Shown here: in pieces, positions 3,723-40,827 of the stretch
Numbering within the stretch: the stretch's first letter is position 1
Layout: every line of letters starts with the position of its first letter
Assembly: GCA_030752605.1 (NCBI GenBank)
Contig: JASMDX010000049.1
Location: 57,726 to 121,725, forward strand
DNA length: 64,000 nucleotides
Origin: Alphaproteobacteria bacterium
GTDB lineage: Bacteria > Pseudomonadota > Alphaproteobacteria > GCA-2731375
Reading direction: 5' to 3'
The notes under the pieces: generated by a model
The model's input: the letters and a program-made list of their open reading frames with translations, nothing else
Told to the model about the DNA's origin: nothing
Database searches by the model: none
Translations under genes and position numbers: made by a program

Positions 3723-3724
3723 GT

Positions 3725-8585: not shown

Positions 8586-8595
8586 CCGGTCAGCG

Positions 8596-9267: not shown

Positions 9268-9328
9268 CGAAATGCTCCCTATGGATGAGCCAGCCTTTGC
9301 ACTTTTGATGTCAGCAGGTCAGCCAGCT

Positions 9329-10197: not shown

Positions 10198-10321
10198 TTT
10201 TCAGCCCCTCCTACACTATGCCGCCTTACCTTGGCACTCCATAGTGGCAGACGGGGGGAGCGAGGTGAAGGGGCCGGATGAATTAGTGGAGAAAACCGGA
10301 GCAGCACACCCGTTCCATATC

Positions 10322-11485: not shown

Positions 11486-11589
11486 GGATTTTCCTCTTGT
11501 CTCGACAATTAAGATACCGGCCCAGGATGGCATAGCTGTTGCCGACAAAGCAAAGCATAGCCGTGACGTGGACCTGAACTCCGGCAAAA

Positions 11590-17823: not shown

Positions 17824-19629
17824 ATGGCGTCCCGACCAGGTGCGGTCGTGAGCCTGCAGCGTCTGTTACTGTTGGCAGTAGTCCCAGCCCTGATGTTGGT
17901 TGGCGTACATATTTTATTGCAATTTTTGGCCGATTGGTTCGCACTTGATGGGCGCTTTATCGGCCCAGATGCCTATATGCGGGTGCTCCGCGTGGGGGAT
18001 CTTGCTTCGGGCGGGAGCTGGTATGAACCGGTAGCCGAACGTTCCAACGCACCCTATGGCGAAATTCTGCACTGGACCCGGCCACTAGACCTGTTGTTGT
18101 TGCTGGGTGGTATCCTGGGCGCGCCTTTACTGGGCTTCGATGGCGCCCTATTCGCCTGGGCGACTGTGTTCGGCCCGGTGCTTCATATTTTCACCCTCGT
18201 CGTGCTGCTGTGGGCCTGCCATCCGCTGTTGAATCAAAAAGGTCTGATGCTGCTAGGCCTGTTGTTCACAGTACAGTTTTTTGTCAGTTTTCAGTTTGCG
18301 GTGGGACGACCGGATCATCATGGGCTTAATATTCTATTTTTCATCTGGCAAATGGGCTTTGCCTTCCGTCTCTCGGCCGTAAAATGCCTGAAAAATTTAC
18401 CTCTTTTTGCAGCCCTGCCGGCCGCGCTCGCGCTCTGGATTAGTATTGAGGGCGCGGTGGGCACGGCCATGATCTTGACAGCGTTGTGCACCGCGTGGAT
18501 CATCCATGGCGGCGTCTATTTGCACCGGATGCGTTTGTTTCTCGTTAGCCTGAGTGTTGGTCTGATACTGGTATTGGTGGCGGAACGGCTGCCTAGTGAT
18601 CTGCTGACGGTAGAGTTCGATCGCCTATCGGTGGTGCATATCGCTTTGTTCGCGATATTGACCTTGGCTGCCCTGTGCATGCCCAGGATGGCGCGTCTGG
18701 GGAACCGTCTAAGCCTCGCGGTCGCCGCCGGCGTTCTGACCCTCACCGTCTTGGGGCTGTGGGTACCGGATTTCTTCTCTGGCCCCATGGCTGCCATGGA
18801 CCCACTCGTCTACGAGATTTGGTTCCGCAATAACGCCGAGGTCAGTCCGACGCTGGAACTCGACGATATGCGCCGAACCGGGCCAAAGGCCCTGGCCCAT
18901 CTCGGCCTGGTCATCTACGCGGTGCCGATACTGGTGGTTCTGTTCTTTCATTATCAAGGCGAACGCCGCCGCAATTATGCAATTTTGTCTGTTTTCCTCC
19001 TCGCTGGAACGGCCCTGGCCCTGCGCGAGGCACGCTGGATGGGCTATCCCCAAATCCTGTGCCTGCCCCCTTGCATTGTGTTGCTGCAGGTTCTGTTCGC
19101 ACGCAATGCCGGCCCCGGTCTGGGACGTACCGCGGTGCGCGTAGGCGCGGTTATCGTGCTTGCCACCGGGCCGTTGATCGGTGGCGGGCTGCTGCGCCAT
19201 GCCATGCCCGTACCGAAACAGGAGAAATCTTGTGGACTTTCAGAGATGGCGCTGTTTCTGGGGGTGAACTATGAACACCGCCCGCAAACATTATTAAACT
19301 TCATCTATTACGGGCCGGAATTGCTCTACCGGACACACCATTTCGTGATCGCCACGCCGTATCACCGCAACACCGACGGCATCGTTGATACCATAAAATT
19401 CCTTCGCTCCACCGACGAGTTAGAGGCAATATCCCTGATTGAGGAACGGCATATCGATCTGGTGTTGATCTGCCCCTCAGATCCGGAGGCTGATAATTAT
19501 CGCCAGACCGGCGATACCCCGACCTTATTCATGCGATTAGAATCTGATCAGCCACCACCCTGGCTCACGATGGTCCCGTTGCCCGCCGAACTGGGCCAGA
19601 AATTCAAATTGTTCCAGACCCAACGGTAG
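17824..19629 (+). CDS. Large polytopic membrane protein, putative GT-C-type glycosyltransferase
   Basis: About 10-12 hydrophobic helices over some 450 aa, followed by a soluble C-terminal domain of about 150 aa. The start is uncertain. The context (GtrA + FAD oxidoreductase) suggests lipid-linked glycan modification. Confidence 0.5.
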   Translation: MASRPGAVVSLQRLLLLAVVPALMLVGVHILLQFLADWFALDGRFIGPDAYMRVLRVGDLASGGSWYEPVAERSNAPYGEILHWTRPLDLLLLLGGILGAPLLGFDGALFAWATVFGPVLHIFTLVVLLWACHPLLNQKGLMLLGLLFTVQFFVSFQFAVGRPDHHGLNILFFIWQMGFAFRLSAVKCLKNLPLFAALPAALALWISIEGAVGTAMILTALCTAWIIHGGVYLHRMRLFLVSLSVGLILVLVAERLPSDLLTVEFDRLSVVHIALFAILTLAALCMPRMARLGNRLSLAVAAGVLTLTVLGLWVPDFFSGPMAAMDPLVYEIWFRNNAEVSPTLELDDMRRTGPKALAHLGLVIYAVPILVVLFFHYQGERRRNYAILSVFLLAGTALALREARWMGYPQILCLPPCIVLLQVLFARNAGPGLGRTAVRVGAVIVLATGPLIGGGLLRHAMPVPKQEKSCGLSEMALFLGVNYEHRPQTLLNFIYYGPELLYRTHHFVIATPYHRNTDGIVDTIKFLRSTDELEAISLIEERHIDLVLICPSDPEADNYRQTGDTPTLFMRLESDQPPPWLTMVPLPAELGQKFKLFQTQR

Positions 19630-23368: not shown

Positions 23369-24838
23369 ATGCCCACTCTAAAACCTAATCCAGATACCGT
23401 TGCGCACCAGAAAAGTCGGTGCGATGACAAGCATCCACAACAGGAAATTCCGTCACTGGACCGTCTGTTGCGCGCGCCTGAATTGCAACAATTGCAAGCA
23501 CGGGCGGGCCGTCAATTGGTGCTGGAGGAGGCCCGCGCCGAGCTGACCCAACTGCGCCAGCGGTTGAGCGGCACCAACGCCAATAGTACAGAAGAGACCA
23601 GCCTGGACCATCTGGCGGCCCAGATTGAGGCCCGCGTGGGGGCGGCTCTACGGATGTCCTTGCGGCCCGTATTCAATCTAACGGGCACCGTTCTGCATAC
23701 CAATCTGGGTCGCGCGCCGCTGGCGGAAGAGGCGATCGAAGCCATGGCAAAGGCAGCGCGTGGTGCCGTCAATGTGGAATTTGACCTCGCCAAAGGCCGG
23801 CGCGGCGACCGGGATGATCATGTGGAGGACTGGCTGTGCCGCCTGACCGGGGCAGAGGCCGCGACCGTGGTCAACAACAACGCAGCTGCCGTCCTGTTGC
23901 TGCTCAACACCCTGGCTAACCGCAGGGAGGTGCCTGTTTCACGCGGCGAATTGATCGAAATTGGCGGCGCCTTTCGAATTCCGAATATTATGCGCCGGGC
24001 GGGTTGCCGCCTGGTCGAAGTTGGCACCACGAACCGCACCCATTTGCGTGATTTCACCGAAGCCCTGACCTCGCGCACCGGCTGTTTGATGAAGGTTCAT
24101 ACCTCAAACTACATCGTGCAGGGCTTCACGGCGGAGGTCAGCGACGAAGATCTCGCCGGCCTGGCTCACGAAAATGACCTGCCCTATATGGTCGATTTAG
24201 GCGCCGGCGCGCTGATCGACATGGCGGCCCTGGGCCTGCCATACGAAACCACGGTCAGCGAAACCCTGGCAAAGGGTGCCGATTTGGTTAGCTTTTCCGG
24301 AGACAAGCTTTTGGGCGGGCCACAGGCCGGCCTAATCGCCGGACGCGCGGATTTGATCGCCAAGATCAAGAAAAACCCCATGAAACGGGCCCTTCGGGTG
24401 GATAAAGTAACCATGGCGGCCCTAGCCGCGACCCTGCGCCTGTATGCCCAACCTGACACCCTGCGGGCCAAACTGCCAACCTTGCGCTTATTGAGCCGGC
24501 CCGTGGCCGAAATCCAGGCCATGGCGGAGCGGATCGCGCCTGCGTTGCGGCTAACCTTGGGCGATGGCTTCCAAGTCACGATCACGCCGAGCAAGGGACA
24601 AATCGGCAGCGGTTCGTTGCCAGTTGAAAGCTTGCAAAGCGTGGCCCTGGCGTTGCGGCCCTGCACCACGAAGGGCAGCGGTGCTGCCTTGAAACGGTTG
24701 GCAGCGGCGTTTCGCACCCTGCCCCGACCGGTCCTGGGCCGGATTACAGATGACGCCTTGCATTTCGATCTTCGCTGCCTGGAGGATGGCGGGGACGAGG
24801 CGGCCTGGTTGGCGCAAATAGCGGATTTAAGGCCATGA
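23369..24838 (+). CDS. selA: L-seryl-tRNA(Sec) selenium transferase (selenocysteine synthase)
   Basis: SelA-specific length and the PLP-lysine motif FSGDKLLGGPQAG. It overlaps selB by 4 nt. Confidence 0.9.
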   Translation: MPTLKPNPDTVAHQKSRCDDKHPQQEIPSLDRLLRAPELQQLQARAGRQLVLEEARAELTQLRQRLSGTNANSTEETSLDHLAAQIEARVGAALRMSLRPVFNLTGTVLHTNLGRAPLAEEAIEAMAKAARGAVNVEFDLAKGRRGDRDDHVEDWLCRLTGAEAATVVNNNAAAVLLLLNTLANRREVPVSRGELIEIGGAFRIPNIMRRAGCRLVEVGTTNRTHLRDFTEALTSRTGCLMKVHTSNYIVQGFTAEVSDEDLAGLAHENDLPYMVDLGAGALIDMAALGLPYETTVSETLAKGADLVSFSGDKLLGGPQAGLIAGRADLIAKIKKNPMKRALRVDKVTMAALAATLRLYAQPDTLRAKLPTLRLLSRPVAEIQAMAERIAPALRLTLGDGFQVTITPSKGQIGSGSLPVESLQSVALALRPCTTKGSGAALKRLAAAFRTLPRPVLGRITDDALHFDLRCLEDGGDEAAWLAQIADLRP

Positions 24839-26784
24839 TCATCGCCACCGCCGGCCATGTTGATCATGGCAAGACCACTTTGGTGCGAGCTCTAACGGGG
24901 GTCGATACGGATCGTCTGCCGGAAGAGAAAAAACGCGGCCTGACCATCGATATCGGCTTTGCCTATCACGAAATCGATAGCGGGACGGACCATAAGGTGG
25001 TCATGGGCTTTGTCGATGTGCCGGGCCACGACCGCTTTATCAAAAACATGCTGGCGGGCGTCGCCACGATAGATTTCGTCCTGCTGGTAGTCGCCGCTGA
25101 CGATGGCGTGATGCCTCAGACGGAAGAGCATTTGGCCATCCTTGGTCTGTTGGGCATCCAGCAAGGCGCCGTGGCCATTACCAAAATTGATCGGACGACG
25201 CCCGAGCGCGTGGCTCAGGTTGAGGCCGAGGTTGCCGCCTTGCTGACGCCGACGCCCTTGGCAGGCGTACCCACGTTCTCGGTTTCAGGCGAGCTTGGCA
25301 CCGGTATGGATGCGTTGCGCCAGCATTTGGAAGCGGCCGCCCGCAACCATGCCGACCGCGCGGTGAACGGTCAGTTTCGCCTCTCTATCGACCGCGCCTT
25401 CACGGTTTCCGGCGCCGGCCTGATCGTCACAGGGGCGGTGTTTTCCGGTCAGGTTGCGGTCGGCGACCGTCTGATCCTGGCGGCCCGGGATAGAGCCGAG
25501 CCGATCGAGGCGCGGGTGCGCGGCCTGCGCGCCTTGGACCGTGAGGCCGAGTTGGGCCGGGCCGGGCAACGTTGCGCCATCAATATCGCAGGTGGCGAAC
25601 TGCATCAATCGCTTGTCAGCCGGGGTGATTGGCTATTGTCAGAAGCGATTTACGCGCCGGTGCACAAGTTCGATGCCCGGATCCGGGTGCTGAACAGTGA
25701 AAGCCGGCCATTGGGCCATTGGACGCCAGTGCATCTGCATCTAGCCGCCGCTGATATCACCGGACGCATCGCGGTTTTGGGCGAACGGCGCATTGCGCCC
25801 GGTGAAGATGCCCTGGCACAACTGGTATTGGATAGCCCAATAGGCGCCCTGTTCGGGGATCATTTCGTTTTGCGCGATCAATCCGCCCAACGCACCATCG
25901 CGGGCGGGATCGTCATTGATCCGTTCCCTCCCCGGCGCGGCCGTGCCCAGCCGGCGCGCCTAGCGATGTTGCGGGCCATGGAGGCGGAAGCGTCGGCCGA
26001 AGCCCTGGCGGCCATGGTTGCGGCCGCGGAAAATGGCGTCAATCTGCACCAATTCGTACAAACCCGCAATCTGACCCAGGCGGAAGCAGAACATCTGCGG
26101 CAGATTGACGGGCAGGTCCTACTGGCCGCCAATGACGATGACTTGGTGCTATCCCTTGAGCACTGGCGTCGTATCAAACAAGGGATCCTTGATACCCTGG
26201 CCACCTGGCACAAGAAACAACCCGAGGCCGTGGGCCCCAACGATAATGCCCTGCGCGCGGCCATGACATCGCCGCCCAGTCCCATTCTGCTGGCGGCTTC
26301 AATCGCGCATCTGATCGACGGGCGGACGATTATCCGCGACGGTATCTCGTTGCGCCTGCCCAGCCATGCACCGCGTCCCTCGGACGCGGATCTGGAATTA
26401 TGGAAACAGGTTTCGCTAATCCTGGAAGAAGGCGGCATTCGCCCGCCCAGAGTGCGCGAGGTGGCGGAGGAATTGAAGATAGATCCTGCCCGCCTGGAAG
26501 CTTTCCTAAAACGCTGCGCCCGCCAGGGCCGCCTGATGGCCGTGGCGCCGAACAGATTTTTCCCGCCCGCCGCGGTCTGGCGATTGGCGGCGGTGGTTGA
26601 AAGGTTAAGCGCGGCAGTGGGCGAGGAAGGTTTCACCGCCGCCGCCTTCAAGAATGACACCGGTATTGGCCGCAACGTGGCAATCGAGGTGCTGGAATTC
26701 TTCGACACCGCCGGCTTGACCCAGCGCCAGGGCAACACCCGGCGACTGCGCCGCCCGGCAGCGGAAGTCTTTGGCGACGCCTGA
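24835..26784 (+). CDS. selB: Selenocysteine-specific translation elongation factor
   Basis: EF-Tu-like GTPase motifs ([20 protein letters not shown]), followed by the long SelB C-terminal winged-helix extension. 649 aa. Confidence 0.9.
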
Positions 26785-27337: not shown

Positions 27338-28882
27338 TTAGATTTGCCGGCCAGCCCGCTCCCAATAAGGTTGACGCAGCTTTCGTTTAAAAATTTTTCC
27401 CGTATCTTCGCGCGGCATGGCGTCATGAAACGTTACCTCGCGCGGGATTTTATAGGCCGAAATATGCTGGCCCAGATATTCCCGTACCGCCTCCACCAAT
27501 AATGTCTCTCCGGGTTGTGGTTCGATCGCGGCCGCGACGCTTTCACCGAATTCATCATGAGGAATGCCAAATACAGCGCAATCCTGCACGCCGGGCATCT
27601 CATGTAACGCCGCCTCGATCTCGGCAGGGTAGATGTTTACGCCGCCCGAGATGATCATGTCGCGCTTGCGGTCGTTCAGGAACAGGTAGCCATCCTCGTC
27701 AATGTAGCCAACGTCGCCATTCGTGACCATGCCGTCGCGTTCGATCTCGGCCCGCTTATCATCTTTGTTATGATAGGTGAAATCGGAAAGATTTGGCATG
27801 GTCATATAGATTTCGCCACTTTCCCCCCGGCCCAGAACCTTGCCGTCATCGTCATAAATGCGCACCACAGTGTCCTCCTGGGGTCGGCCCACTGTGCCGG
27901 GTTTGGCCAGGGCATCGGCGCTGGAGGCAACGGAGACGATGCCGGCCTCGGTGGAGCCGTAATATTCGAAGATTACCTCACCCCACCATTCGATCATCTT
28001 GGTCTTGGCCTCGGGCGGACAGGGTGCCGCGCCATGGATCACATGCACCAACGATGATAAGTCGTATTTGGCTTTAATCTCGTCCGGCAGACGCAGCATG
28101 CGCATGAACATGGTAGGCACCACGTGCATATGGCTGATCTTGTGCTCATGGACGGCTCGCAGCAGGCCTTCGGGATCGAAACGCGGCAACAGATGAATAT
28201 CGTTACCAAGGGCCATGGCGATGGAAGCATAGGCGCCCGGAGCGGAGTGGTACATCGGCCCGGTCATGGCGCATACACCACCCATCCCAATGCCGAACGA
28301 CCGCATGGCCAATTCCCCCAATCGGGCCTGGTTCTCAGGCGAGGTGGGTTCCCGGCGCACGCCCTTTGGATTGCCTGTGGTACCCGAGGTATAGATCATG
28401 CTACCCCGCTGCAGGGGCGGCGCTCCGGTCCAAGGCTGGAAACCATCGCGCCAGATTTCATAGTCCGTCATACCAGCCGCCACCGCCTGATTTTCCGGCG
28501 GTATACTGTAAGCATCGGCGATTTCGGGCGGCGTGGCGCAAACCAGAACGGAGATACCGCCGGGCACCTCGGAGGCGATGGCGGGCAGCAGATCCGCATG
28601 CACCACGACCGCCTTGGCGCCGGAGTCCGAGAGCACATACCCCGCTTCCTCCGCCGTGGCATGCCAATTGACCGGGACCGCATAGGCGCCGATCAGATTG
28701 CCAGCAATCTTGGTTTCCAACATGGCTATATCATTGCGCATGACAGTAGCGAAACTGTTGCCATCACCAACTCCGAGGGACACTAGCCCAGCCGCCAGCT
28801 TGGCACCATTCAGCGCCACCTCTTCCATGGCCACCTTCCGGTCGCCGCTATAAACGTAATAGGTCATGGCTTTCCAACCCAC
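27338..28882 (-). CDS. AMP-forming acyl-CoA synthetase (AMP-binding enzyme)
   Basis: YTSGTTGNPKGV AMP-binding signature. 514 aa; an alternative start is at 28867. Confidence 0.85.
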   Translation of the reverse strand: MGWKAMTYYVYSGDRKVAMEEVALNGAKLAAGLVSLGVGDGNSFATVMRNDIAMLETKIAGNLIGAYAVPVNWHATAEEAGYVLSDSGAKAVVVHADLLPAIASEVPGGISVLVCATPPEIADAYSIPPENQAVAAGMTDYEIWRDGFQPWTGAPPLQRGSMIYTSGTTGNPKGVRREPTSPENQARLGELAMRSFGIGMGGVCAMTGPMYHSAPGAYASIAMALGNDIHLLPRFDPEGLLRAVHEHKISHMHVVPTMFMRMLRLPDEIKAKYDLSSLVHVIHGAAPCPPEAKTKMIEWWGEVIFEYYGSTEAGIVSVASSADALAKPGTVGRPQEDTVVRIYDDDGKVLGRGESGEIYMTMPNLSDFTYHNKDDKRAEIERDGMVTNGDVGYIDEDGYLFLNDRKRDMIISGGVNIYPAEIEAALHEMPGVQDCAVFGIPHDEFGESVAAAIEPQPGETLLVEAVREYLGQHISAYKIPREVTFHDAMPREDTGKIFKRKLRQPYWERAGRQI

Positions 28883-30278: not shown

Positions 30279-31973
30279 TTACGCAACCAGGTCCCGCAAC
30301 TCCCGGCGCAGTACTTTGCCGACGGGAGATTTGGGAATATCGTCGATAAACTGAATACGTTTTGGCACCTTGTAGTTGGTCAGGCCATCATGGCAATGGG
30401 CAATCACAGCTTCCTCGGTGACTCCATCGTCGTTGCGCACGATGAAAGCCATGGGCACTTCGGAGGATTTTTCATCCGGGATACCGACCACGCCGACCTC
30501 GACCACACCGGGGAGCTTGGAGATGACATCCTCGATCTCATTCGGCGAGACATTGAAGCCCGAAACCAGGATCATATCTTTCTTGCGGTCCACGATCTCA
30601 AGAAAGCCATCCTCGTCCATCACCGCGATGTCGCCGGAATAGAGCCAGCCGTCCTTTAAAGCTTCTGCCGTCGCATCCGGACGGCCGAAGTAACCCTTCA
30701 TGATGGTCGGGCCCTTGAACAATAGCTCGCCGGGCGAACCAATGGGTTGATCGACGCCCTCGTCATCGACGATGCGCACGTCCAGACCAGGCACTGGGAT
30801 ACCGACCGAGCCTAGACGATTCTCACCCAATGGGTTCAGACTCATTACGCCGCAGCATTCCGTCATGCCATAGCCCTGATAGATCTCGACGCCCGTGGCA
30901 TCGGCCCAACGCTGGGCCACGCCAGTCTGTTGCGCCGCACCGCCAGAGCCGCAGAAAACCACGTCCTTGAGCAGATCACGGCTGAACCAGTCTTCCTCCA
31001 ACAGCACCGCGAACAGAGTATTGATGCCGGTAAAGCGGGTGACTTTGAAATTCTCGAACGCGGTTTTCAAATTTGACGGCGGGCGCGGTGACGGCACCAG
31101 AACCATGTGGTCGCCGCCAGCAATACCGAGCACGAAAATCAGGGCGAAGGCGGTAATGTGATACAGTGGCAGGATTACCAGGGTGGTATCGCCATCAGGA
31201 TTGGTGATTTCCTCGGCCAGGCAATTAGCCTGCGCGGCGTTGGCGAGGATGCCCGTATGGCTTAATTCCGCGCCCTTGCTGCGCCCCGTGGTGCCGGAGG
31301 TATATTGGAACAAGGCCGAATCCGCGCCGCTCTGACCTGCGGTATACGACGCGATATCGCCGCCATTCCGCGCCCGTGCGCCTTGACTTAGTGCATCGGC
31401 GAAATCGATATGGGCGTGCGCCATATTGGGAATGGCCTTTTTCACGTGCTTTAGCACGATGCCGATGATCAGCTTTTTCATAAAAGGGAAGAAATCCAGC
31501 AGGGAAATCTTCACCACCTGGCGAACATCCGTGTTACCGACGACCTCGTCGACCTTATCGCCGAACATATCGATAATGATCAGCAACTTGGCCTTGGAAT
31601 CGTTGAGCTGATGTTCCATTTCCGGTGCGGTATAGAGTGGGTTGATATTGGTACAGATTGCACCGGCTAGAAAGGCGCCGGCGGCGGCAATGGTGAAGTC
31701 AATGCAATTGGGCGTCATCATGGCAACGGTCTCGCCCCTTTGCAGCCCGGCGGTCTCGCGCAGATAGGCGGCGAAATCCCTGGAATGCTCCAGCCACTCG
31801 GCATAGTTCAGCGTGGTCGCCGCGCCGTTGGGCAGCACGGTGGTCATCGCCGGACGGTTGGCGAATTCCGTGCCCGCATGATTAATCAATTCGACCAGTG
31901 TACCATGCGCCATGGCGTCCGCATCGAAGTTCCTAGCCGTTTCGCTGTAATACTTCTCCCAAGGTCGCGACAT
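30279..31973 (-). CDS. Long-chain-fatty-acid--CoA ligase (AMP-binding, FadD-like)
   Basis: YTSGTTGRSKGA motif. The start is set at the ATG at 31973 (MSRPWEKYY), which is preceded by a GGAGGCGG RBS. Confidence 0.85.
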   Translation of the reverse strand: MSRPWEKYYSETARNFDADAMAHGTLVELINHAGTEFANRPAMTTVLPNGAATTLNYAEWLEHSRDFAAYLRETAGLQRGETVAMMTPNCIDFTIAAAGAFLAGAICTNINPLYTAPEMEHQLNDSKAKLLIIIDMFGDKVDEVVGNTDVRQVVKISLLDFFPFMKKLIIGIVLKHVKKAIPNMAHAHIDFADALSQGARARNGGDIASYTAGQSGADSALFQYTSGTTGRSKGAELSHTGILANAAQANCLAEEITNPDGDTTLVILPLYHITAFALIFVLGIAGGDHMVLVPSPRPPSNLKTAFENFKVTRFTGINTLFAVLLEEDWFSRDLLKDVVFCGSGGAAQQTGVAQRWADATGVEIYQGYGMTECCGVMSLNPLGENRLGSVGIPVPGLDVRIVDDEGVDQPIGSPGELLFKGPTIMKGYFGRPDATAEALKDGWLYSGDIAVMDEDGFLEIVDRKKDMILVSGFNVSPNEIEDVISKLPGVVEVGVVGIPDEKSSEVPMAFIVRNDDGVTEEAVIAHCHDGLTNYKVPKRIQFIDDIPKSPVGKVLRRELRDLVA

Positions 31974-32121
31974 CTTTTCCGCCTCCATCCCCAAAGCCTC
32001 TTTTATGCCCAAGACGGTATCGTGATTTGCCGCGTAAAACAATTACTACCGAAAGAAAACGCGCAATAACGATGCCCAATTGTTAAGCTGGGCGTAGAAA
32101 CAGAAACTCAGGATCGAGCAT

Positions 32122-33297
32122 ATGAAAATCACCGGCTGTGAAGTCCTGCACTGTGGTGCGGGTTGGCGTAATTTTTCCTTTTTGAAGCTGCAGACGGACG
32201 ACGGCATCACTGGCATCTCGGAATATAACGAGAGCTATGGATCCAAAGGCCTCTCAGCCGTGATTGAGGCCTTGGTCGAAACTCAAATTGGGCAGAACCC
32301 CTGCAATCACGAGGCCATTTCACAGCAGCTTTACGCCATGACGCGGCAGGCGCCGGGCGGCATCAATCAACAGGCCATGGCCGCTATCGAAAATGCCATG
32401 ATGGACATCAAGGGCAAGGCCCTAGGCGTACCAGTCTATGACCTATTGGGCGGTGCGGTGCGGGATCGGATGAAGCTCTATTGGTCCCATTGCGGTAGCT
32501 ATCTGATGAACCCGGCGGCGGCGAAAGCGATCGGACGGTCACCGCTGAAGAACCTCGACGACGTGGAGGCCCTGGGGGCACGAGTGCGGGAGAGCGGCTA
32601 TACGGGCCTGAAGACCAATATCTTCCGCTTTGGTGAGACGCCGCCGCTGCACATGCCCGGCTTTGGGCGGGGGCCGGGCTGTCCTGAGCTGAATGTGGAA
32701 AAGCACATCATCCGCGATCTGAGGGCCCAGTTGGAGGCACTGCGCGAAGGCGCCGGCCCCGACATGGGCATCCACCTTGATATTAATTTCAACTGCAAGA
32801 CCGAAGGGTATTTGCAGATGACCCGGGCCCTGGATGATCTGGGTCTGACCTGGTTCGAAATTGATCTTTACGACCCGGAGGCCCTGCGCCATATCCGCAA
32901 TTCCGTGCAAACGCCCATCGCCTCTTGCGAAAGCCTATTCCGCCTGCGGGAATTCCGTCCGTTCTTTGAAAATCACTCCATGGATGTTGCCATTATCGAT
33001 CTGCCCTGGAACGGGATCTTTCATTCCATGAAGATTGCCGCCATGGCCGAGGCGTACGAAATCAACGTTGCGCCGCATAATTTTTACGGCCATCTATCTT
33101 CCATCATGTCGGCCCATATGTGCGCCGCCGTGCCCAATTTCCGCATCATGGAGATTGATGTGGACGATGTCCCGTGGAAAGACGAGATCGTCACCTATGT
33201 GCCGGAGATCGAGGATGGCTATCTGAATCTACCGAAGGGCCCCGGTTGGGGTACGGAACTGAATGAAGACGTTATCCGCGCCCACCCGCCTATTTAG
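32122..33297 (+). CDS. Enolase-superfamily sugar-acid dehydratase (mannonate/galactonate dehydratase-like subgroup), fourth paralogue
   Basis: MKITGCEV N-terminus and metal-ligand pattern. 391 aa. Confidence 0.75.
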   Translation: MKITGCEVLHCGAGWRNFSFLKLQTDDGITGISEYNESYGSKGLSAVIEALVETQIGQNPCNHEAISQQLYAMTRQAPGGINQQAMAAIENAMMDIKGKALGVPVYDLLGGAVRDRMKLYWSHCGSYLMNPAAAKAIGRSPLKNLDDVEALGARVRESGYTGLKTNIFRFGETPPLHMPGFGRGPGCPELNVEKHIIRDLRAQLEALREGAGPDMGIHLDINFNCKTEGYLQMTRALDDLGLTWFEIDLYDPEALRHIRNSVQTPIASCESLFRLREFRPFFENHSMDVAIIDLPWNGIFHSMKIAAMAEAYEINVAPHNFYGHLSSIMSAHMCAAVPNFRIMEIDVDDVPWKDEIVTYVPEIEDGYLNLPKGPGWGTELNEDVIRAHPPI

Positions 33298-34320: not shown

Positions 34321-35082
34321 ATGCCATATCTGGACCGCGGCAACGGCGTTCGCATCTATTTCGAGGATAGCGGCGGCAGCGACCTGCCGATCCTGTTGGC
34401 CCATGGTTTTGGCGCCTCGACGGCGATGTGGGCCGGTCAGGTCACCAAATTTTTAGACCGCTACCGCTTGATCACTTGGGACATGCGCGGCCACGGCAGA
34501 ACGGAATGCCCGGAGGATTTGAGTTTTTTTGGTCAGGATGAAACAGTCGACGACATGTGCGCGGTCCTGGATCGTCTCGACATCAGAAAAGCCGTTATCG
34601 GCGGACATTCCCTGGGCGGCTTCATGTCCCTGGCCTTCAACGCGCGTTATCCAGAAAGGGTCGCGGCCCTGATCCTACAGGGCTGTGGGCCGGGATATCG
34701 CAGCGACAGGGCGCGAGAGACCTGGAACGAGCGCGCCGAGAGCCGGGCCAGATCATTGGAGGAAGGCGGCCTTGACGCCCTGGGCGGCACGGGGGAGGTC
34801 AGCGCGTCCATTCAAGGCACCGCGCAGGGTCTGGCGCTTGCGGCGCGGGGTATACTGAATCAAGTCGACGCCCGCGTCATCGACAGCCTGATGGGCATCG
34901 CCGTGCCTACCTTGATTGTCATCGGCGATGGAGACAGCAACTATTTGCAGGGCTCCGACTACATGGCGGCCCGCATCCCCAACGCCGTCAATGTCCTGGT
35001 GGCGAACGCCACCCACGGCGTCAACATCGATCAGCCCGAGGCGGTCAACAAAGCGTTGGGCGAATTCCTGGAGGGTTTGTGA
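34321..35082 (+). CDS. Alpha/beta-fold hydrolase
   Basis: GHSLGG nucleophile-elbow motif. 253 aa. Confidence 0.8.
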   Translation: MPYLDRGNGVRIYFEDSGGSDLPILLAHGFGASTAMWAGQVTKFLDRYRLITWDMRGHGRTECPEDLSFFGQDETVDDMCAVLDRLDIRKAVIGGHSLGGFMSLAFNARYPERVAALILQGCGPGYRSDRARETWNERAESRARSLEEGGLDALGGTGEVSASIQGTAQGLALAARGILNQVDARVIDSLMGIAVPTLIVIGDGDSNYLQGSDYMAARIPNAVNVLVANATHGVNIDQPEAVNKALGEFLEGL

Positions 35083-35240
35083 GGCCGCTCAACCCGTCGG
35101 GATAATGACGATCATGAACATGGCGACGCCGGCGTCACGGTTCAGGTCAAATTAGCGCGGATTAATGACATGGGGCTCTTCATGGAGGCGCCAGTTCGCG
35201 TGCGCTATCGCCGGTTGGCCATTGCGCACGGCTGGAGGCA

Positions 35241-36893
35241 CTATTCCTTCAACAATCGCCGGAACATTTTGCCGGTCGCGCTGAGCGGTAGTTCTTCCCG
35301 AAATTCAACCGCGCGCGGCACCTTGTAGCCGACCATGCGCTGCTTGCAGAAAGTAATGATATCGCCTTCCGCCACCAAGCCACGATGACTTTCCTTCAGC
35401 ACCACGAAGGCCTTCACCACCTCACCCCAATAGTCGTCGGGCTGCCCGGTCACGGCGGCCAATTGCACCGCCGGATGGGCATAAATGACTTCCTCCACCT
35501 CGCGCGGCCAGACCTTATAGCCGGCGCTGTTGATCAGGTCTTTCTTGCGGTCAACGATGGTGAAATAACCCTCGGCATCCATCAACGCGATATCACCGGT
35601 ATGGAACCAGCCGCCCGCCATCGCCATCGCCGTTTCCTCCGGCCGCTTCCAATAGGCCTTCATCACTTGCGGTCCACGGATCACCAACTCGCCTGCCTCG
35701 CCCGCCATCAGATCGGTTCCGGTGTCGGGATCCACAATCTTAGCGTCGGTGTCGCGAAGCGGTATGCCGATCGAGCCCGGCTTGGCCCGGTGTGGTGGAT
35801 TGGCATGGGTCAGCGGGCTGGTTTCCGTCAGGCCATAGCCTTCGATCAGCACCTCGCGGCCAACCAGTTCGTCAAATGCCGCCTTGACACTGGCCGGCAA
35901 TGGCGCAGCCGAGGTGCGGCAGGCGCGCAGTGATGAATAATCGGCTGCCTGCGCCGTCTCGTCATTGAGCAAGGCGATGAACATGGTTGGCACACCGAAC
36001 AAACGGGTGGCGCCGTAATGTTCCACCGTCCGGGCGATCACGCCTGGGCGAAAGTGTTGGAACAGCAGGATCGTCGCGCCTGCATACAAAGGCACGTTCA
36101 GGGCCCCCGACATGCCGCCGCTGTGAAACATGGGTAGGGCGCCAATGCAGGTTTCGGCGCCTGTTTCGAAGGCATACCATTCGGCAAACTGCATGGTGTT
36201 GGCGACGATGTTTCGGTGGCTCAGCATCGCGCCCTTAGGCTGGCCGGTGGTGCCGCCGGTATAGAGCAGCACCGCCACATCTTCCGCCGGGTCGAGCGGA
36301 CAAGGCGTGATTTCTTCTCCGGAAAATGCCAGCAGCTCCGCTAAGGTCAGGGCGCCGGCCTGCGGCGCGGCTTCACTTTCGTCGGCCAGTACCAATTGGA
36401 TGCCCAAGTTGGCGGCGACCTTGTCGGCCACCTCCGCCCGTGCGTAGGTGGCCAGTAGAATGTCAGCCTCGGCGTCTGCCAATAGAGAAGTGGCTTCGCC
36501 CTCGGTCAGGGCCGGGTTGATCGGTACCACCGTCGCCCCCAGCAACCAGGCGGCGTGATAACCCATCACCAGTTCGGCGCAGTTGCCCAACGCCAGGGCG
36601 ACGTGGCCACCCTGGCCAATGCCCAGTTCACGCAGACCGCCAGCCAGGGCTTGTACCGAGCGCCAAAGCTCTCGGTAGGTTATATTGCGGGTTTCGGTAC
36701 CACTTTCATGGTCGATAATGCACAATGCAGAGCGTTCGGAAAAACGTTCGAGATTACGCTGCAACAGCCACCAGGCCGGCACGTCGGGGTAGTCAAGCGT
36801 GGCGGGAAGATGCGCCGGCCAGGCGTGGCGCCAAGGGGGCGTCCCGTCAGCCCCGGATCGGCTAGGCACCTCCCGAGGCCACCTCCAGGCCAT
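35241..36893 (-). CDS. AMP-forming acyl-CoA ligase
   Basis: LLYTGGTTGQPKGAMLSH motif. 550 aa. Its start overlaps the upstream OFOR gamma gene by 32 nt. Confidence 0.85.
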   Translation of the reverse strand: MAWRWPREVPSRSGADGTPPWRHAWPAHLPATLDYPDVPAWWLLQRNLERFSERSALCIIDHESGTETRNITYRELWRSVQALAGGLRELGIGQGGHVALALGNCAELVMGYHAAWLLGATVVPINPALTEGEATSLLADAEADILLATYARAEVADKVAANLGIQLVLADESEAAPQAGALTLAELLAFSGEEITPCPLDPAEDVAVLLYTGGTTGQPKGAMLSHRNIVANTMQFAEWYAFETGAETCIGALPMFHSGGMSGALNVPLYAGATILLFQHFRPGVIARTVEHYGATRLFGVPTMFIALLNDETAQAADYSSLRACRTSAAPLPASVKAAFDELVGREVLIEGYGLTETSPLTHANPPHRAKPGSIGIPLRDTDAKIVDPDTGTDLMAGEAGELVIRGPQVMKAYWKRPEETAMAMAGGWFHTGDIALMDAEGYFTIVDRKKDLINSAGYKVWPREVEEVIYAHPAVQLAAVTGQPDDYWGEVVKAFVVLKESHRGLVAEGDIITFCKQRMVGYKVPRAVEFREELPLSATGKMFRRLLKE

Positions 36894-37401
36894 GGCCTAT
36901 ATCTAGGGCGCGCAGGTTTTGTTCATGGGCCCGCGGAATGACATCCACCATGACATCCTTCATCACAGCTAGATCCATCGCCGCCAGGCGGGCCAAGGCG
37001 CCCAGCATCACCATGTTAGCAAAAAGGGCATCGTCTAAATATTCCCGCGCCAAGGCGCGGGAGGGAACCTCCACGTGCCGCTCGGGCGCATCGCCGTGGA
37101 TGTCCTCGACCATTTCAGGATCGTACAAAATCTTACCGCCGCACAGATCATAAAATTTAGTGTAGGCCGGGGCGGAAAAAGCAACGAATAGATCGGCGTT
37201 CTCGACCACTGGACTGTCCACATACTCCGGCGAGATCACCAGTTGCGCACGCACATAGCCGCCTCGGGTCTCGGTACCATGGCTTTTCAACATGGTCACC
37301 CGGTGTCCCTGATCGACCGCGCTACGCCCCAGGATCAGGGCCATGCGGACCACCCCTTGGCCGCCAAAGCCGCTTATCAGTATTTCCGTGCGCGGCTTCA
37401 T
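36862..37401 (-). CDS. 2-oxoacid:ferredoxin oxidoreductase, gamma subunit
   Basis: ILISGFGGQGVV motif typical of POR/VOR gamma. 179 aa. Confidence 0.85.
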   Translation of the reverse strand: MKPRTEILISGFGGQGVVRMALILGRSAVDQGHRVTMLKSHGTETRGGYVRAQLVISPEYVDSPVVENADLFVAFSAPAYTKFYDLCGGKILYDPEMVEDIHGDAPERHVEVPSRALAREYLDDALFANMVMLGALARLAAMDLAVMKDVMVDVIPRAHEQNLRALDIGHGLEVASGGA

Positions 37402-38231
37402 GCCGGCGCGTCCATATCGGCGCGAACCCGTGTGTTCAGATCGCGTAATACTTTGGAGTACTCCGGCCGGCTATTGGAGGCATCATGCTTAATGCCGGTC
37501 GTCCAGGCGAAATCAGTTTCCTCGCCATCATCGGTCCTGCCCTTGGTATGATCATGAATCCACTCCATGTTGTACAACGGATCGCGGCTGCCAAGGGCCG
37601 AAGCGCCGAAATTCTGGACGCAAGGAAAACGGATGTGGACAAAGGAAAAACCATCGTTGGCCAGTGCCATCTTGACGATCTTGACGGTTTGGCGCCATTG
37701 CACGGCGGTGGTCTCGGCGACGAATGTGGCACCGGCGGCGATCACCAGATCGCAGGGATCAAATGATTGCTCGACCATGCCATAGGGAGACGAATTGGTC
37801 ACGTATCCCTCCGGCGTAGTTGGCGAGAACTGGCCGCCGGTTGATTCGTAACCCATATTATCCTCGCAGATCACCGTAACCCCGACATTGCGCCGGGCGG
37901 CGTGAACCAGATGCGAGGCGCCGATCGACGAGGCATCGCCGTCGCCGACCACCAGCATGATCTGCTTGTCGGGACGGGCCACCTTCAGGCCGGTGGCGAC
38001 CGCCAGGGCACGGCCATGAGTAGCGCCGAAATTATCGCCGCCCCAAGTGGCAAAGGTCTGCCTGCCGACACAGCCGATACCGGCACCAAAGATGACGTCT
38101 TCCAGTTTCAATCCCGATTCATCAATCGCCTGCAGTAACCAATGTTCGATGGAGCCGATGGCGCAGCCCTGGCAGGCCTTGGTCGGGACCAGTTCCGGGC
38201 GCAGATATTTCTTGGCCAGTTTATTCATCAC
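37398..38231 (-). CDS. 2-oxoacid:ferredoxin oxidoreductase, beta (TPP-binding) subunit
   Basis: TPP-binding GDGD motif (LVVGDGDASSIG) and N-terminal Cys cluster CQGCAIG. Confidence 0.85.
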   Translation of the reverse strand: MMNKLAKKYLRPELVPTKACQGCAIGSIEHWLLQAIDESGLKLEDVIFGAGIGCVGRQTFATWGGDNFGATHGRALAVATGLKVARPDKQIMLVVGDGDASSIGASHLVHAARRNVGVTVICEDNMGYESTGGQFSPTTPEGYVTNSSPYGMVEQSFDPCDLVIAAGATFVAETTAVQWRQTVKIVKMALANDGFSFVHIRFPCVQNFGASALGSRDPLYNMEWIHDHTKGRTDDGEETDFAWTTGIKHDASNSRPEYSKVLRDLNTRVRADMDAPA

Positions 38232-39454
38232 CTAACCTCCGTCCAGATAAAGGGCTGTTCGGGCATTTTCTGATCCTTGTTAACGCTCTGAAGCGCCTCG
38301 CAAACCTCCGCCACAGTATGCATCTCGCCGCTCTTGCCCATGAAATGCACCTTTTTCTTGTCCGGGGCGGCGCGCATCACTTCGCGCACCAATTGGCCGT
38401 CGTAGTTCAGTTCACAGACCAGATAGAGCAGGTCCATTTCTAACAACTCGTCGGGAAAGGGCCACAACGAGATCAGCCGCAAGAACCCGGCCTTGACGCC
38501 CTGCCTGCGGGCTTCCTCGACGGCGGTCTTCACCGTGCGGGAAGTAGCGCCGTAGGCAACCGCAACAACCTCGGCATCTTCCAGGCCAATCGCTTCATAA
38601 CGCAGGATTTCTTCCTTGTGGTGGCGGATCTTGTTGATCAGCCGGAAGGTCTGGGCCCACTGCGCCTCCATATCCTCGATGTCATAACCTTCCTCGGTGT
38701 GGGTATAGGGCGAGACACAGACCCCGGTGCCCTCACCGATGACATTCGGGGCTAGGTCGATGTCCGAATTATTACCCGGAAAGAACGGCATTTCCAGATT
38801 ATGCCGTCTCGGCACCACGATGTCGGCGAGATCGCCATAATCGCCGGGCAGGAACAGATCTTCGGACATATCCGAGATCACCTGATCGGTCAGCACCGTC
38901 ACCACGGTGCGGAAACGCTCAGCCAAATTGAAGGCGTCGATTGTCAGCCAGAAGGTTTCCTGCACGCTATTCGGCGACAGCACAATGGTCTCTATATTGC
39001 CGCCGTGGCTGCAATAGCGCGAGACATAGAATTCACCCTGTCCCGGCGCGCCGGTAATGCCGCTTACCGGACCGACGCGCATGGCGTCCACCACCACAAC
39101 CGGTATTTCGTTGACGATGGCCCAGCCGTAGGCATCGTGCATCAAGGTAAAGCCGGGGCCGGAGGTCGCCGTCATCACCTTCTGCCCGCCCAGAGAAGCG
39201 CCGGCGCACATATGCATGCCGGCCAGCTCGTCCTCGGCCTGCAGATAGAAGCCGTCGATCTGCGGCAGGCGCTTTGACATGTATTCGGCGATGTCGGTCG
39301 CAGGCGTAATCGGATAGCCCGCGAATACGCCCAGACCGGCGGCGACCGCGCCCTCGGTCAGAGCATAGGTGCCGGCCTCCAACAGCCGTTGGCCATCCTG
39401 ATATGTTTCTTGCCATTCGGCCCAAGGGGCCACCAGTCCTTCGGTCAGTGTCAT
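38228..39454 (-). CDS. 2-oxoacid:ferredoxin oxidoreductase, alpha subunit
   Basis: 408 aa alpha-subunit-like sequence (GYPITPATDI...). 4-nt overlaps on both sides. Confidence 0.85.
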   Translation of the reverse strand: MTLTEGLVAPWAEWQETYQDGQRLLEAGTYALTEGAVAAGLGVFAGYPITPATDIAEYMSKRLPQIDGFYLQAEDELAGMHMCAGASLGGQKVMTATSGPGFTLMHDAYGWAIVNEIPVVVVDAMRVGPVSGITGAPGQGEFYVSRYCSHGGNIETIVLSPNSVQETFWLTIDAFNLAERFRTVVTVLTDQVISDMSEDLFLPGDYGDLADIVVPRRHNLEMPFFPGNNSDIDLAPNVIGEGTGVCVSPYTHTEEGYDIEDMEAQWAQTFRLINKIRHHKEEILRYEAIGLEDAEVVAVAYGATSRTVKTAVEEARRQGVKAGFLRLISLWPFPDELLEMDLLYLVCELNYDGQLVREVMRAAPDKKKVHFMGKSGEMHTVAEVCEALQSVNKDQKMPEQPFIWTEVR

Positions 39455-39768
39455 GAAATTTTTTCCTTACCCGGCTTCGCTGCCGGCCGCGTCTTGGCGG
39501 TTACGTCGATACAGAAGTCCGGGCAGATCTGGAAACACAGCATACAGCCAAAGCAGTTTTGTTCGTGTTTCACATAGACAGAAAACCAGCCCAGTCGGTT
39601 GGGCACCTCGCGCGAGGCAAAGACATCCACCGGGCAGATGTTGCTGCAGAAACCGCAAGCCTTGCAGTCATCTTCGGCCAGTTCAACATCCCAGATGCCG
39701 ACGTTCTTGGTGACCTGGGTCTTCTCGGCTTTAAAGAGGGGAATAGCCCTTCCTCCCATACGCGCCAA
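39451..39768 (-). CDS. 2-oxoacid:ferredoxin oxidoreductase, delta subunit (2x[4Fe-4S] ferredoxin)
   Basis: Two CxxCxxCxxxCP motifs (CKACGFCSNICP, CFGCMLCFQICP). Confidence 0.8.
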   Translation of the reverse strand: MARMGGRAIPLFKAEKTQVTKNVGIWDVELAEDDCKACGFCSNICPVDVFASREVPNRLGWFSVYVKHEQNCFGCMLCFQICPDFCIDVTAKTRPAAKPGKEKIS

Positions 39769-39918
39769 ACAGCGCCGGCGTCATTTCGTTTACGCATCGG
39801 CTCCGACACGCGGGTTGTTATAAAACTATACTGTCTACGCGGTTTCGCTGTCCAGCCAGGCAATGGCTGTCATCGGAATATTCTTCACGGCTCCTGTATT
39901 ACAGCGATCCGTACTGCC

Positions 39919-40827
39919 CTAACCCGTCAGGATGATGACGACAATGGCTATCATGACCAGGGCGATGCCGGCCAATTCCATGCGCGTGGTCTTTTCCTTG
40001 AAGAAAAACACCGAGGCGGCAAAAGTGAAAATCAGCTCGATTTGCCCTACCGCCCGGACGTAAGCGGCGTTTTGCAGGGTGAAGGCGGTGAACCAGCCGA
40101 CCGAGCCCAGAAAGCCAACGACGCCAACGGCGGAGGCTGGTTTCCAATGGCGGAATACAGCCGTTATCTGGCCCGGCTCTCGCCACAAAAGATACCCCCC
40201 CAGCATCACAGTCTGCATGGACAAGGCGACGGCCAGGGCGAATGAGGCGCGGATCATCACGTCCATATCACCCAGAGCCAGAATGGCGCCCCGAAAGAAG
40301 ACTACGGAAGAGCCCAGGAACGCACCACAGATTAAACCGACCAGGGTTGATTTTTCGAACAGCGAGGTCGCAAGATTGCTCCAGCTCAACGCCGACTGGG
40401 CCATGGACAGCAAGATCACGCCGACCAGACCCAGCATGATCGCCGCCGTGCCCGCCATGCTGACCTCGTCGCCTAGCAGGATCAGGCCCAGCAGGGCGAT
40501 CTGCAAGATCTCGGTCTTGGAAAAGGTCGTGCCCACGGCAAAATTCCGCAACGAGAACAGATAGATCAGAATAAAAGTGAATAGTATCTGCGACAGCCCA
40601 CCCAGAAAACAATAGATCAAGAAGGTTGCATTAACCTCCGGCAGGGCATGACCGCCGTAACTAAGCACGGCCCACAACAGAACATAGGACAGGGGCAACG
40701 CATAGAGAAAGCGTACATAGGAGGCGCCACCGGTGGAGAGCCGGCCCTTGATATGCTTCTGCAGGACCGAACGCAGGTTCTGCATGAAGGCGGCAAAGAT
40801 AGTGATGGGGATCCAATACGAAAACAT
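39919..40827 (-). CDS. DMT-superfamily (EamA-like) transporter
   Basis: About 10 TM helices with a duplicated EamA-like topology. 302 aa. Confidence 0.75.
   Translation of the reverse strand: MFSYWIPITIFAAFMQNLRSVLQKHIKGRLSTGGASYVRFLYALPLSYVLLWAVLSYGGHALPEVNATFLIYCFLGGLSQILFTFILIYLFSLRNFAVGTTFSKTEILQIALLGLILLGDEVSMAGTAAIMLGLVGVILLSMAQSALSWSNLATSLFEKSTLVGLICGAFLGSSVVFFRGAILALGDMDVMIRASFALAVALSMQTVMLGGYLLWREPGQITAVFRHWKPASAVGVVGFLGSVGWFTAFTLQNAAYVRAVGQIELIFTFAASVFFFKEKTTRMELAGIALVMIAIVVIILTG

Follow-up and report, generated by a model that had tools for sequence, protein, structure and literature searches.

What does a 2-oxoacid:ferredoxin oxidoreductase (OFOR) do when it is encoded in one operon with an AMP-forming acyl-CoA ligase? 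The question is raised by positions 35241–39768 of a 64,000-nucleotide stretch of the alphaproteobacterial contig JASMDX010000049.1, which was analysed as a whole and is referred to here as the window. On the minus strand, from 39768 to 35241, five intact overlapping open reading frames (ORFs) encode the delta, alpha, beta, and gamma subunits of the OFOR and then the ligase, with a promoter-like site on their 5′ side:

39825..39854, minus strand: promoter-like site TGGACA-18-TATAGT, 10/12 in a consensus scan, a pattern match only
39451..39768, minus strand: delta, 2x[4Fe-4S] ferredoxin-like subunit; Pfam Fer4_7/Fer4_21 (Fer4 dicluster)
38228..39454, minus strand: alpha, domains I and II; Pfam POR_N and PFOR_II
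37398..38231, minus strand: beta, domain VI, thiamine pyrophosphate (TPP)-binding; Pfam TPP_enzyme_C
36862..37401, minus strand: gamma, domain III; Pfam POR
35241..36893, minus strand: AMP-forming acyl-CoA ligase of the ANL superfamily, FadD-like; Pfam AMP-binding and AMP-binding_C

The first-pass annotation of this DNA had described a complete four-subunit OFOR operon with an AMP-forming acyl-CoA ligase, and the five ORFs and their Pfam assignments agree with that description.

The coupling to the ligase, which the annotation had pointed out in the window, was followed from both sides. An alpha-seeded search yielded 34 genome loci, all in metagenome-assembled genomes (MAGs) of Alphaproteobacteria, Methylomirabilota/Rokubacteria, Nitrospinota, Binatia, Chloroflexota, and unclassified bacteria, 30 of which extend far enough for the ligase to be judged. 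The ligase directly follows gamma in 27 of these 30 loci, lies just before delta in 2, and is missing in 1 (L013); that is, it adjoins the OFOR in 29/30. From the ligase side, a single scan of metagenomes gave 466 relatives, and among the best 80 of the 466, the gamma gene of the same clade is directly upstream in 65 and a sister OFOR with the beta motif YQSTGGQ in 3; 6 loci end too early, and 6 have no OFOR in the available flank. An OFOR is thus found just upstream in 68 of the 74 informative metagenome loci.

At a few loci, the partner of the OFOR is a different enzyme. In L013, a member of the clade, gamma adjoins a 697-aa ADP-forming acyl-CoA synthetase, with genes for an acyl-CoA dehydrogenase and a thiolase next in order. 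In L049, from a Chloroflexota sister clade (alpha 56% identical, beta motif YASTSGQ), the gene order over positions 1–11926 is LysR, delta-alpha-beta-gamma, sucC, and sucD, and the sister clade L048 (alpha 55% identical, beta motif YQSTGGQ) has a different ANL ligase (32% identical). Three unrelated kinds of CoA ligase thus stand beside one OFOR lineage, which amounts to non-orthologous replacement and therefore suggests that the constant function of the partner is the interconversion of an acid and its acyl-CoA. The same function is served by the partners in the known pairs of archaeal OFORs with ADP-forming acyl-CoA synthetases and of 2-oxoglutarate:ferredoxin oxidoreductase (OGOR) with succinyl-CoA synthetase, and it is these partners that replace the ANL ligase in L013 and L049.

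Because the ADP-forming synthetase and SucCD usually make ATP from the thioester in OFOR contexts, the cassette might be read as an archaeal-style system for energy conservation, in which the OFOR would convert a 2-oxoacid into an acyl-CoA and the ligase, working in reverse, would convert acyl-CoA, AMP, and pyrophosphate into the acid and ATP. Reverse operation of an AMP-forming synthetase has reportedly been found in Syntrophus aciditrophicus. In contrast to the archaeal and succinyl-CoA pairs, however, the partner here is AMP-forming and normally irreversible towards the thioester, so that ATP conservation is unlikely; the reverse ANL reaction needs high pyrophosphate and is exceptional, the binding-protein-dependent importers beside the ligase speak for uptake rather than excretion of the acid, and the carriers include no known fermenters. 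We consider this explanation extremely improbable.

Several of these loci show further features. A group-4 NiFe-hydrogenase/complex-I-like membrane module is located directly upstream in L049. L048:1–18837 has the order NitT/TauT-type ABC system, AAT-family acyltransferase, ANL ligase, and delta-alpha-beta-gamma, and its OFOR is bracketed by two Oxidored_nitro (nitrogenase-like) gene pairs, a PALP enzyme, and an aminotransferase, an unusual pairing. The L013 contig carries a second OFOR (L013:379–3845, minus strand) of the two-subunit type, with a fused gamma-alpha of 640 aa, adjoining a Fer4_20/Pyr_redox_2 (GltD/SudA-like) NAD(P)H-linked flavoprotein. At L075:1541–11569, a cassette-type ligase (57% identical) occurs without any OFOR, between a NitT/TauT-type ABC importer with a class III (omega-) aminotransferase on one side and TctCBA on the other; this locus combines importers of the cassette's kinds with a different partner enzyme.

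The enzyme itself was placed by using the curated NCBIfam cut-offs as the membership test for each subunit. No subunit reaches any of them. The best matches are OorD (NF007205) for delta, with 50 bits versus a cut-off of 93; PRK08659 for alpha, with 361 versus 411 (the second of the NF006412/NF007206 pair giving 248 versus 579); the OorB-type PRK09628 for beta, with 194 versus 364 (OorB profile set, NF007207); and PRK08537 for gamma, with 107 versus 235 (the second of the NF006275/NF006323 pair giving 43 versus 216). The 2-oxoisovalerate (VOR), pyruvate (POR), indolepyruvate (IOR), phenylglyoxylate, and oxalate oxidoreductase families score far lower than the Oor/Kor-type ones: the VOR cut-offs are missed with 255 versus 399 (VorB, NF005507) and 64 versus 405 (Vor beta, PRK11864), the POR cut-offs with 84 versus 550 (PorA_Arch) and 59 versus 405 (PorB), and the IOR cut-offs with 41–49 versus 651 (TIGR03336, IOR alpha at 41) and 57 versus 206 (TIGR03334), and PadG and PadI give 61 and 43 bits, respectively. 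The annotation had allowed for membership in a well-characterised family known from a close relative; all four subunits lie below the curated cut-offs for any such family.

The best profile matches, the presence of four separate subunits, and their delta-alpha-beta-gamma order all correspond to the OorDABC/KorDABG architecture. The nearest solved structures of alpha are Pyrococcus 1YD7/4WBX (246 bits over residues 27–388) and Helicobacter pylori OorA (8YS5, 187 bits); those of beta include H. pylori OorB (8YS5), with alignments made to 8YS5_C, 6N2N_B, and 5B46/5B48_B; and gamma matches 3ON3, 3G2E, and 8YS5_B only weakly. To our knowledge, no substrate has been established for the 1YD7/4WBX protein. 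An exhaustive search with beta found no more than three sister representatives at 48–52% identity, with the motifs YQSTGGQ or YASTSGQ, beyond which the scores are at most 183 bits. Taken together, these comparisons place the OFOR as a distinct, uncharacterised lineage predicted to belong to the Oor/Kor-like part of the superfamily.

The designation "VOR/IOR-like", given to the enzyme in the first-pass annotation, is not supported by these matches and the D-A-B-C order, which are of the Oor/Kor type. An enzyme for branched-chain or aromatic 2-oxoacids would share the four-subunit architecture with VOR, could find more room in a pocket that has Ser in place of the Leu/Met of Kor-type enzymes, and would have a functional analogue in the pairing of IOR with phenylacetate-CoA ligase. 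On the other hand, the VOR and IOR profiles score as low as given above, and IOR itself is a two-subunit enzyme of different architecture; such a specificity is thus very improbable.

The substrate pocket was mapped onto the residues defined for the Sulfolobus tokodaii enzymes StOFOR1/2 (5B46–5B48; PMC5020499). Recognition of the carboxylate by Thr and Arg is common to StOFOR and the cassette, whereas the positions facing the R group are changed: Thr349, Asp468′, Lys49b, and Leu123b of StOFOR correspond to Ser, Tyr, Arg, and Ser in the window. StOFOR1/2 also differ in being two-subunit enzymes without delta. In beta, the pocket reads Y-E-S-T-G, whereas it reads Y-G-L-T-(K/N) in the StOFOR, Magnetococcus, and H. 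pylori enzymes and Y-G-(M/L)-T-G in typical four-subunit representatives. In alpha, the clade has GP(V/I)SGITG (GPVSGITG in the window), in contrast to the GPSTGxPT of known enzymes (GPSTGQPT in Pyrococcus 1YD7/4WBX). The position contributed by the other protomer is Tyr, as opposed to Leu in the H. pylori, Pyrococcus, and Hydrogenobacter enzymes and Asp468 in StOFOR. These differences are nearly invariant across the clade: of 36 beta subunits from genomes, 34 carry the beta signature CEDNMGYESTGGQFSPTTP (YESTGGQ), which also occurs on 47 metagenome loci. The sole OGOR pocket residue that is kept is the beta Arg of GIGCxGR, which the H. pylori and Magnetococcus OGORs also have. The papers on the H. 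pylori enzyme and on the Aquifex enzyme report no 2-oxoglutarate-binding residues.

These results bear on whether the cassette encodes an ordinary OGOR (KorDABG/OorDABC) of a tricarboxylic acid (TCA) cycle variant, with the ligase as an unrelated neighbour or an unusual activator of succinate. Homologues are named "2-oxoglutarate ferredoxin oxidoreductase" in their source annotations, the best NCBIfam and Protein Data Bank (PDB) matches and the D-A-B-C order are of the Oor/Kor type, the L049 operon continues into sucCD, and the GIGCxGR Arg is retained. The OorDABC enzymes of H. pylori and Campylobacter (8YS5, 3G2E), which likewise consist of four separate subunits and give the best or near-best profile and PDB matches for delta and beta, have in common with the cassette the YPITP motif, the carboxylate-binding Arg, GDGD...N, the four beta Cys, and the 2x[4Fe-4S] delta. 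They differ, however, in the pocket (beta Y-G-L-T-N, alpha GPSTGMPT), in the scores of the cassette far under the cut-offs of their families, and in the genomic context, as the cassette has a GntR regulator, an importer, and an obligate ANL ligase. An ANL ligase partner is not known to us from the epsilonproteobacterial oor operons. Furthermore, a FadD-like ligase is the partner in 92–97% of loci, which chance adjacency does not explain, and the regulator and importer are unlike the surroundings of a housekeeping TCA enzyme. An ordinary OGOR is therefore unlikely, and 2-oxoglutarate is probably not the substrate, as suggested by the polar character of the pocket (Ser, Tyr, Glu or Gln) and by the FadD-like nature of the ligase. 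The sequence alone names no R group.

All five genes are intact. No frameshift or internal stop was found in them, and all the expected catalytic motifs of the five proteins are present and kept in 28–38 relatives. In alpha, GYPITPATDI contains the YPITP motif, which together with Arg126 would bind the substrate carboxylate, and both are conserved among relatives; the clade signature is MRVGP(I/V)SGITGAPGQGEF (RVGP(I/V)SGITGAPGQGE). In beta, the TPP/Mg motif GDGD...N is represented by GDGDASSIGASH...EDN, which is conserved, with the alpha motifs, in 36–38 relatives, and the four Cys for the proximal [4Fe-4S] cluster, in CQGC, GIGC, and FPC, are conserved as well. Delta has two CxxCxxCxxxCP motifs, CKACGFCSNICP and CFGCMLCFQICP, both kept in 33 relatives, and the domain III motifs GFGGQG and ETRGG of gamma are conserved. 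The ANL core of the ligase comprises YTGGTTGQPKGA (the YTGGTTGxPKG motif), GYGLTETS, HTGD, VDRKKDLI, and SATGKMFRR, conserved in 28 orthologues, and its C-terminal catalytic Lys (the GK lysine) is also present and conserved.

The ratio of nonsynonymous to synonymous substitution rates (dN/dS) against relatives is 0.04–0.08 for alpha, 0.07 for beta, about 0.09–0.10 for gamma, and 0.13–0.17 for the ligase. The disrupting mutations that the annotation had named as evidence against its proposal were thus not found: the motifs are intact and dN/dS is 0.04–0.17. An alpha protein of identical sequence occurs in 130 indexed blocks of public assemblies; the five loci that were fetched derive from independent assemblies. 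These results indicate that the five genes are probably functional, with intact motifs under selection. The TPP domains, the carboxylate Arg, and the Fe-S motifs assign the enzyme to the OFOR superfamily, as judged from its sequence, and the predicted reaction is a CoA-dependent oxidative decarboxylation with a ferredoxin acceptor.

The ligase is no member of a named family among those compared: PRK08314 gives 453 versus 705, PRK06187 420 versus 476, malonyl-CoA synthase 338 versus 558, and PimA 294 versus 706, and membership in the named long- or medium-chain FadD, malonyl-, oxalyl-, PimA, MenE, or DmdB-type ligases is not reached. Its nearest structure is FadD-1 of A. fulgidus (3G7S, 302 bits). 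A DmdB-like activity on methylthiopropionate was considered and set aside as improbable, as nothing supports it and the 6IHK/6IJB structures give 166 bits versus the 302 of FadD-1. We take 6IHK/6IJB to be DmdB structures; their PDB label is "AMP-binding domain protein" only.

The junctions between the genes are tight. Delta and alpha share an ATGA, as do beta and gamma, each a 4-nt overlap read directly from the sequence. Alpha and beta share a GTGA of 4 nt provided that beta begins at GTG; a GGAGG located 7 nt upstream favours the next ATG (38228; 276 aa), which is thus probably the start and leaves a 1-nt TGATG overlap. The first-pass annotation had given 4-nt overlaps throughout the OFOR, which holds for delta/alpha and beta/gamma and is less likely for alpha/beta. 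Its 32-nt gamma/ligase overlap requires the ligase to start at ATG 36893. On identical contigs, gene callers also choose starts that give 542 aa (an 8-nt overlap) or 513 aa, so that translation may begin at 36893, at 36869, or further in; the conserved part of the ligase starts at about residue 20. For delta, the true start is probably ATG 39759 (102 aa, as given by gene callers) rather than TTG 39768. The annotation had also spoken of the operon as "fused" to the ligase, which is a separate overlapping gene. An apparent gamma–ligase fusion in L029 was likewise rejected, the long ORF being the ligase frame running back across gamma in a high-GC genome; ORFs in high-GC loci were called with a GC3-weighted caller. 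The promoter-like site falls in the 150-nt gap 5′ of delta, the GC content of the operon is unremarkable, and an Rfam scan of 34900–40300 found no RNA element at E ≤ 1, including any riboswitch or leader that might name a ligand. Overall, the operon is a self-contained, translationally coupled five-gene unit.

This unit is found in very different genomes. Alpha is 72–83% identical across six phyla, with copies in this range in Methylomirabilota/Rokubacteria, Nitrospinota, Binatia, and Chloroflexota, and alpha and beta are 70–83% identical between phyla. No gene flanking the cassette in the window is shared with L009 (alpha 96% identical) or L010 (90%). Since the identity between phyla exceeds the vertical expectation and the flanks are unshared even with the nearest relatives, the cassette would move between phyla as a unit; in other words, it appears to behave as a horizontally mobile unit. 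The annotation had remarked that the operon stands out in a proteobacterial chromosome rich in aerobic flavoenzymes; what stands out is an apparently mobile cassette that crosses phyla. Two candidates for additional members of the unit were rejected. The flanking genes in the window, encoding SecDF, DUF498, EamA, ApbA, and MR_MLE proteins, are absent or only distantly similar at all other loci, and the alpha/beta hydrolases of the window, L044, and L046 are mutually 23–28% identical and not orthologous.

Beyond the five genes, only two features recur. A GntR/FCD regulator is encoded close upstream of the cassette in 12 of 35 genome loci and, among metagenome loci, in 12 of the 28 with room on that side, and a TctC-TctB-TctA tripartite carboxylate importer is encoded just downstream, TctC being present in 7 of 35 genome and 19 of 58 metagenome loci. 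This context is typical of operons for organic-acid utilisation. The best PDB matches of TctC carry no informative ligand assignment. NitT/TauT-type ABC systems, TauE, MR_MLE, and several sulfur-related genes are found near the cassette at low frequency, and aminotransferases are not enriched in the censuses of its flanks.

The sulfur-related genes recur, at low frequency, at L007:11476–16480, at L044:637–1797, and in the upstream flanks of L084, L085, L087, L113, and L119. They encode HcyBio (PF01837) with a CCG/LUD Fe-S protein and a molybdopterin enzyme, YeeE-type Sulf_transp, TauE/SafE, flavocytochrome c sulfide dehydrogenase with a cytochrome c, TauD, and a Cys/Met pyridoxal phosphate enzyme. 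They may reflect the substrate or merely the genomes concerned. Their recurrence, together with that of the NitT/TauT-type ABC systems, offers a slight lead towards a sulfonate substrate (sulfopyruvate, sulfoacetate); no Xsc- or SauS-type gene is among the families in the flank censuses.

Which way, then, would the OFOR and the ligase work together? The two routes offered by the first-pass annotation, oxidative decarboxylation with activation of an acid and reductive carboxylation, are the two main candidates. The linkage of the genes argues well for one acyl-CoA shared by the two enzymes, and the OFOR step may tentatively be taken to run in the oxidative direction. We lean, with less than even confidence, to a convergent arrangement in which an imported acid and the 2-oxoacid longer by one carbon both feed one acyl-CoA pool. 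The OFOR would hold R-CO-COO- through the threonine of YPITP and Arg126 and decarboxylate the 2-oxoacid on TPP; the two electrons would pass from the beta cluster through the two delta clusters to an external ferredoxin or flavodoxin, and the CoA-dependent OFOR would release R-CO-SCoA. The ligase would form the same R-CO-SCoA from free R-COO-, ATP, and CoA. The 2-oxoacid might arise, for example, by transamination and the acid by import, and the acyl-CoA pool would then be consumed by unlinked beta-oxidation-type enzymes.

The oxidative, convergent reading is suggested by several lines of background and context: ANL ligases run towards the acyl-CoA, those OFORs of aerobic organisms that have been characterised work in the oxidative direction, GntR/FCD regulators, found here in operons with importers, usually belong to catabolic and not to biosynthetic operons, and the genes linked to the cassette include no low-potential donor system. 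Other observations weigh against it. The importer, the always-present ligase, and the lack of a conserved downstream acyl-CoA enzyme fit a linear route from acid to 2-oxoacid at least equally well, and a purely convergent scheme predicts loss of the ligase above the 8% seen. In the flank censuses, no gene for a ferredoxin, a flavodoxin, or a ferredoxin-recycling system is conserved beside the cassette. GntR and TctCBA are absent from the window, where the sole transporter gene near the cassette is the unconserved EamA gene.

The linear route would be an assimilatory reductive carboxylation, in which the ligase activates an imported acid and a reversed OFOR combines the resulting R-CO-SCoA with CO2 and two electrons from reduced ferredoxin to give R-CO-COO-, which a housekeeping aminotransferase would convert into an amino acid or which would enter central metabolism. 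One such path gives each gene of the extended operon, namely the TctCBA/ABC importer, the ligase, and the OFOR, a role; with the ligase hardly ever lost and no acyl-CoA enzyme conserved downstream in the flanks, it explains the near-obligate ligase and the importers more economically, and it has the ANL ligase working in its usual direction. The L049 hydrogenase-like complex could supply reduced ferredoxin, and the cassette occurs in Nitrospinota too. Classical carboxylation of branched-chain and aryl acids in rumen bacteria provides a precedent.

A further precedent is the pairing of IOR (iorAB) with phenylacetate-CoA ligase in archaea and anaerobes, which follows the same logic of an AMP-forming ligase and an OFOR joined through an aryl-acyl-CoA. 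In Methanococcus maripaludis, according to the passages of PMC4162585 that cite Porat et al., aryl acids enter a second pathway to aromatic amino acids by way of indolepyruvate oxidoreductase, that is, in the reductive direction. The Pad pathway of Azoarcus/Aromatoleum, with the PadJ ligase and the phenylglyoxylate oxidoreductase PadEFGHI, shows the same ligase–OFOR logic as well. Both systems differ from the cassette in their OFOR families and in the family of the ligase, and the Pad route needs an intervening molybdenum-dependent alpha-oxidation step, which is not conserved at the cassette.

Against the reductive carboxylation, the required donor would have to be near -500 mV, whereas most carriers come from soil, groundwater, and the ocean; the neighbours of the cassette include no conserved ferredoxin-reducing system, GntR/FCD regulators in general point to catabolic operons, and the flanks show no enrichment in aminotransferases. 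We therefore regard it as possible but doubtful. In its most far-reaching form, the cassette would be a portable, horizontally spread acid-salvage module in which a CO2-fixing OFOR of oxic or micro-oxic soil and sea-water bacteria leads from acid to acyl-CoA, 2-oxoacid, and amino acid, a proposal that is rather unlikely.

The contigs with this DNA come from uncultured marine Alphaproteobacteria, the closest MAGs being labelled Rhodospirillaceae, and the isolate name of one relative indicates an origin in the Arabian Sea. The selA (L-seryl-tRNA selenium transferase) and selB (selenocysteine elongation factor) genes are adjacent at 23369–26784 (plus strand), so that the organism would make selenoproteins; ARAGORN found no tRNA in the 64-kb window, and the tRNA-Sec would therefore lie elsewhere. 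A radical-SAM/SPASM gene is also present in the window. From about 61160 to the end of the window (plus strand), after genes for hydantoinase A/B, enoyl-CoA hydratase, and a short-chain dehydrogenase/reductase, a gene begins for a 1422-aa BcrAD_BadFG and DUF2229 protein, seen as L043:1–3152 (minus strand). The BcrAD_BadFG ATPase family includes activators of benzoyl-CoA reductase and of 2-hydroxyacyl-CoA dehydratases, and the gene may be a sign of low-potential, oxygen-sensitive chemistry in its host. Because the selA/selB, radical-SAM/SPASM, and BcrAD_BadFG genes are present, the aerobic nature of the host is an assumption and not a result.

Elsewhere, the window is rich in genes for organic acids and CoA esters, among them one for an enoyl-CoA hydratase. 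Four MR_MLE paralogues (mandelate racemase/muconate lactonizing, or enolase, superfamily) are located at 893–1981, 2005–3126, and 32122–33297 (plus strand) and at 12184–13320 (minus strand), and among them lie genes for a family III CoA-transferase, an acyl-CoA dehydrogenase, an arylmalonate-decarboxylase-like protein, and an old-yellow-enzyme-type flavoprotein; this neighbourhood looks like a dense region of organic-acid catabolism. Two more AMP-forming ligases are encoded within 8 kb of the cassette ligase, at 27338–28882 and 30279–32042 (both minus strand), the latter about 31–39% identical to cassette-type ligases. Two ORFs, of 601 aa (17824–19629, plus strand) and 223 aa (8596–9267, minus strand), have no Pfam match at E ≤ 1e-5.

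Literature searches for this OFOR–ligase cassette found no description of it. In its logic, the combination of OFOR and CoA ligase has known counterparts in the IOR/phenylacetate-CoA ligase, archaeal OFOR/ADP-forming acyl-CoA synthetase, OGOR/succinyl-CoA synthetase, and Pad systems. What is new is the combination of a lineage that fails all curated thresholds and has an invariant active-site signature, a near-obligate FadD-like partner, and the mobile spread of the five genes in uncultured soil and marine phyla. Soil and marine metagenomes hold hundreds of copies, as indicated by the 466 ligase relatives from the single scan. Annotation pipelines label the products "2-oxoglutarate ferredoxin oxidoreductase" and "long-chain fatty acid-CoA ligase", and because of these labels metabolic reconstructions of abundant uncultured groups, among them Methylomirabilota/Rokubacteria, Binatia, Nitrospinota, and marine Rhodospirillaceae, are at risk of misreading the cassette as part of the TCA or reverse TCA cycle and of beta-oxidation. 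The evidence points instead to a single dedicated unit of five genes, mobile and equipped with an active-site signature, a regulator, and an importer of its own.

If the CO2-fixing salvage module were true, the polar pocket (beta Y-E/Q-S-T, alpha′ Tyr) would point to a class of substrates not so far described for OFORs, such as hydroxy-, amino-, or sulfur-substituted acids. The cassette is compact and experimentally tractable, and naming its substrate would give a function to a ferredoxin-dependent reaction that is widespread in organisms commonly regarded as aerobic and would also reveal whether reductive carboxylation of organic acids operates beyond strict anaerobes.

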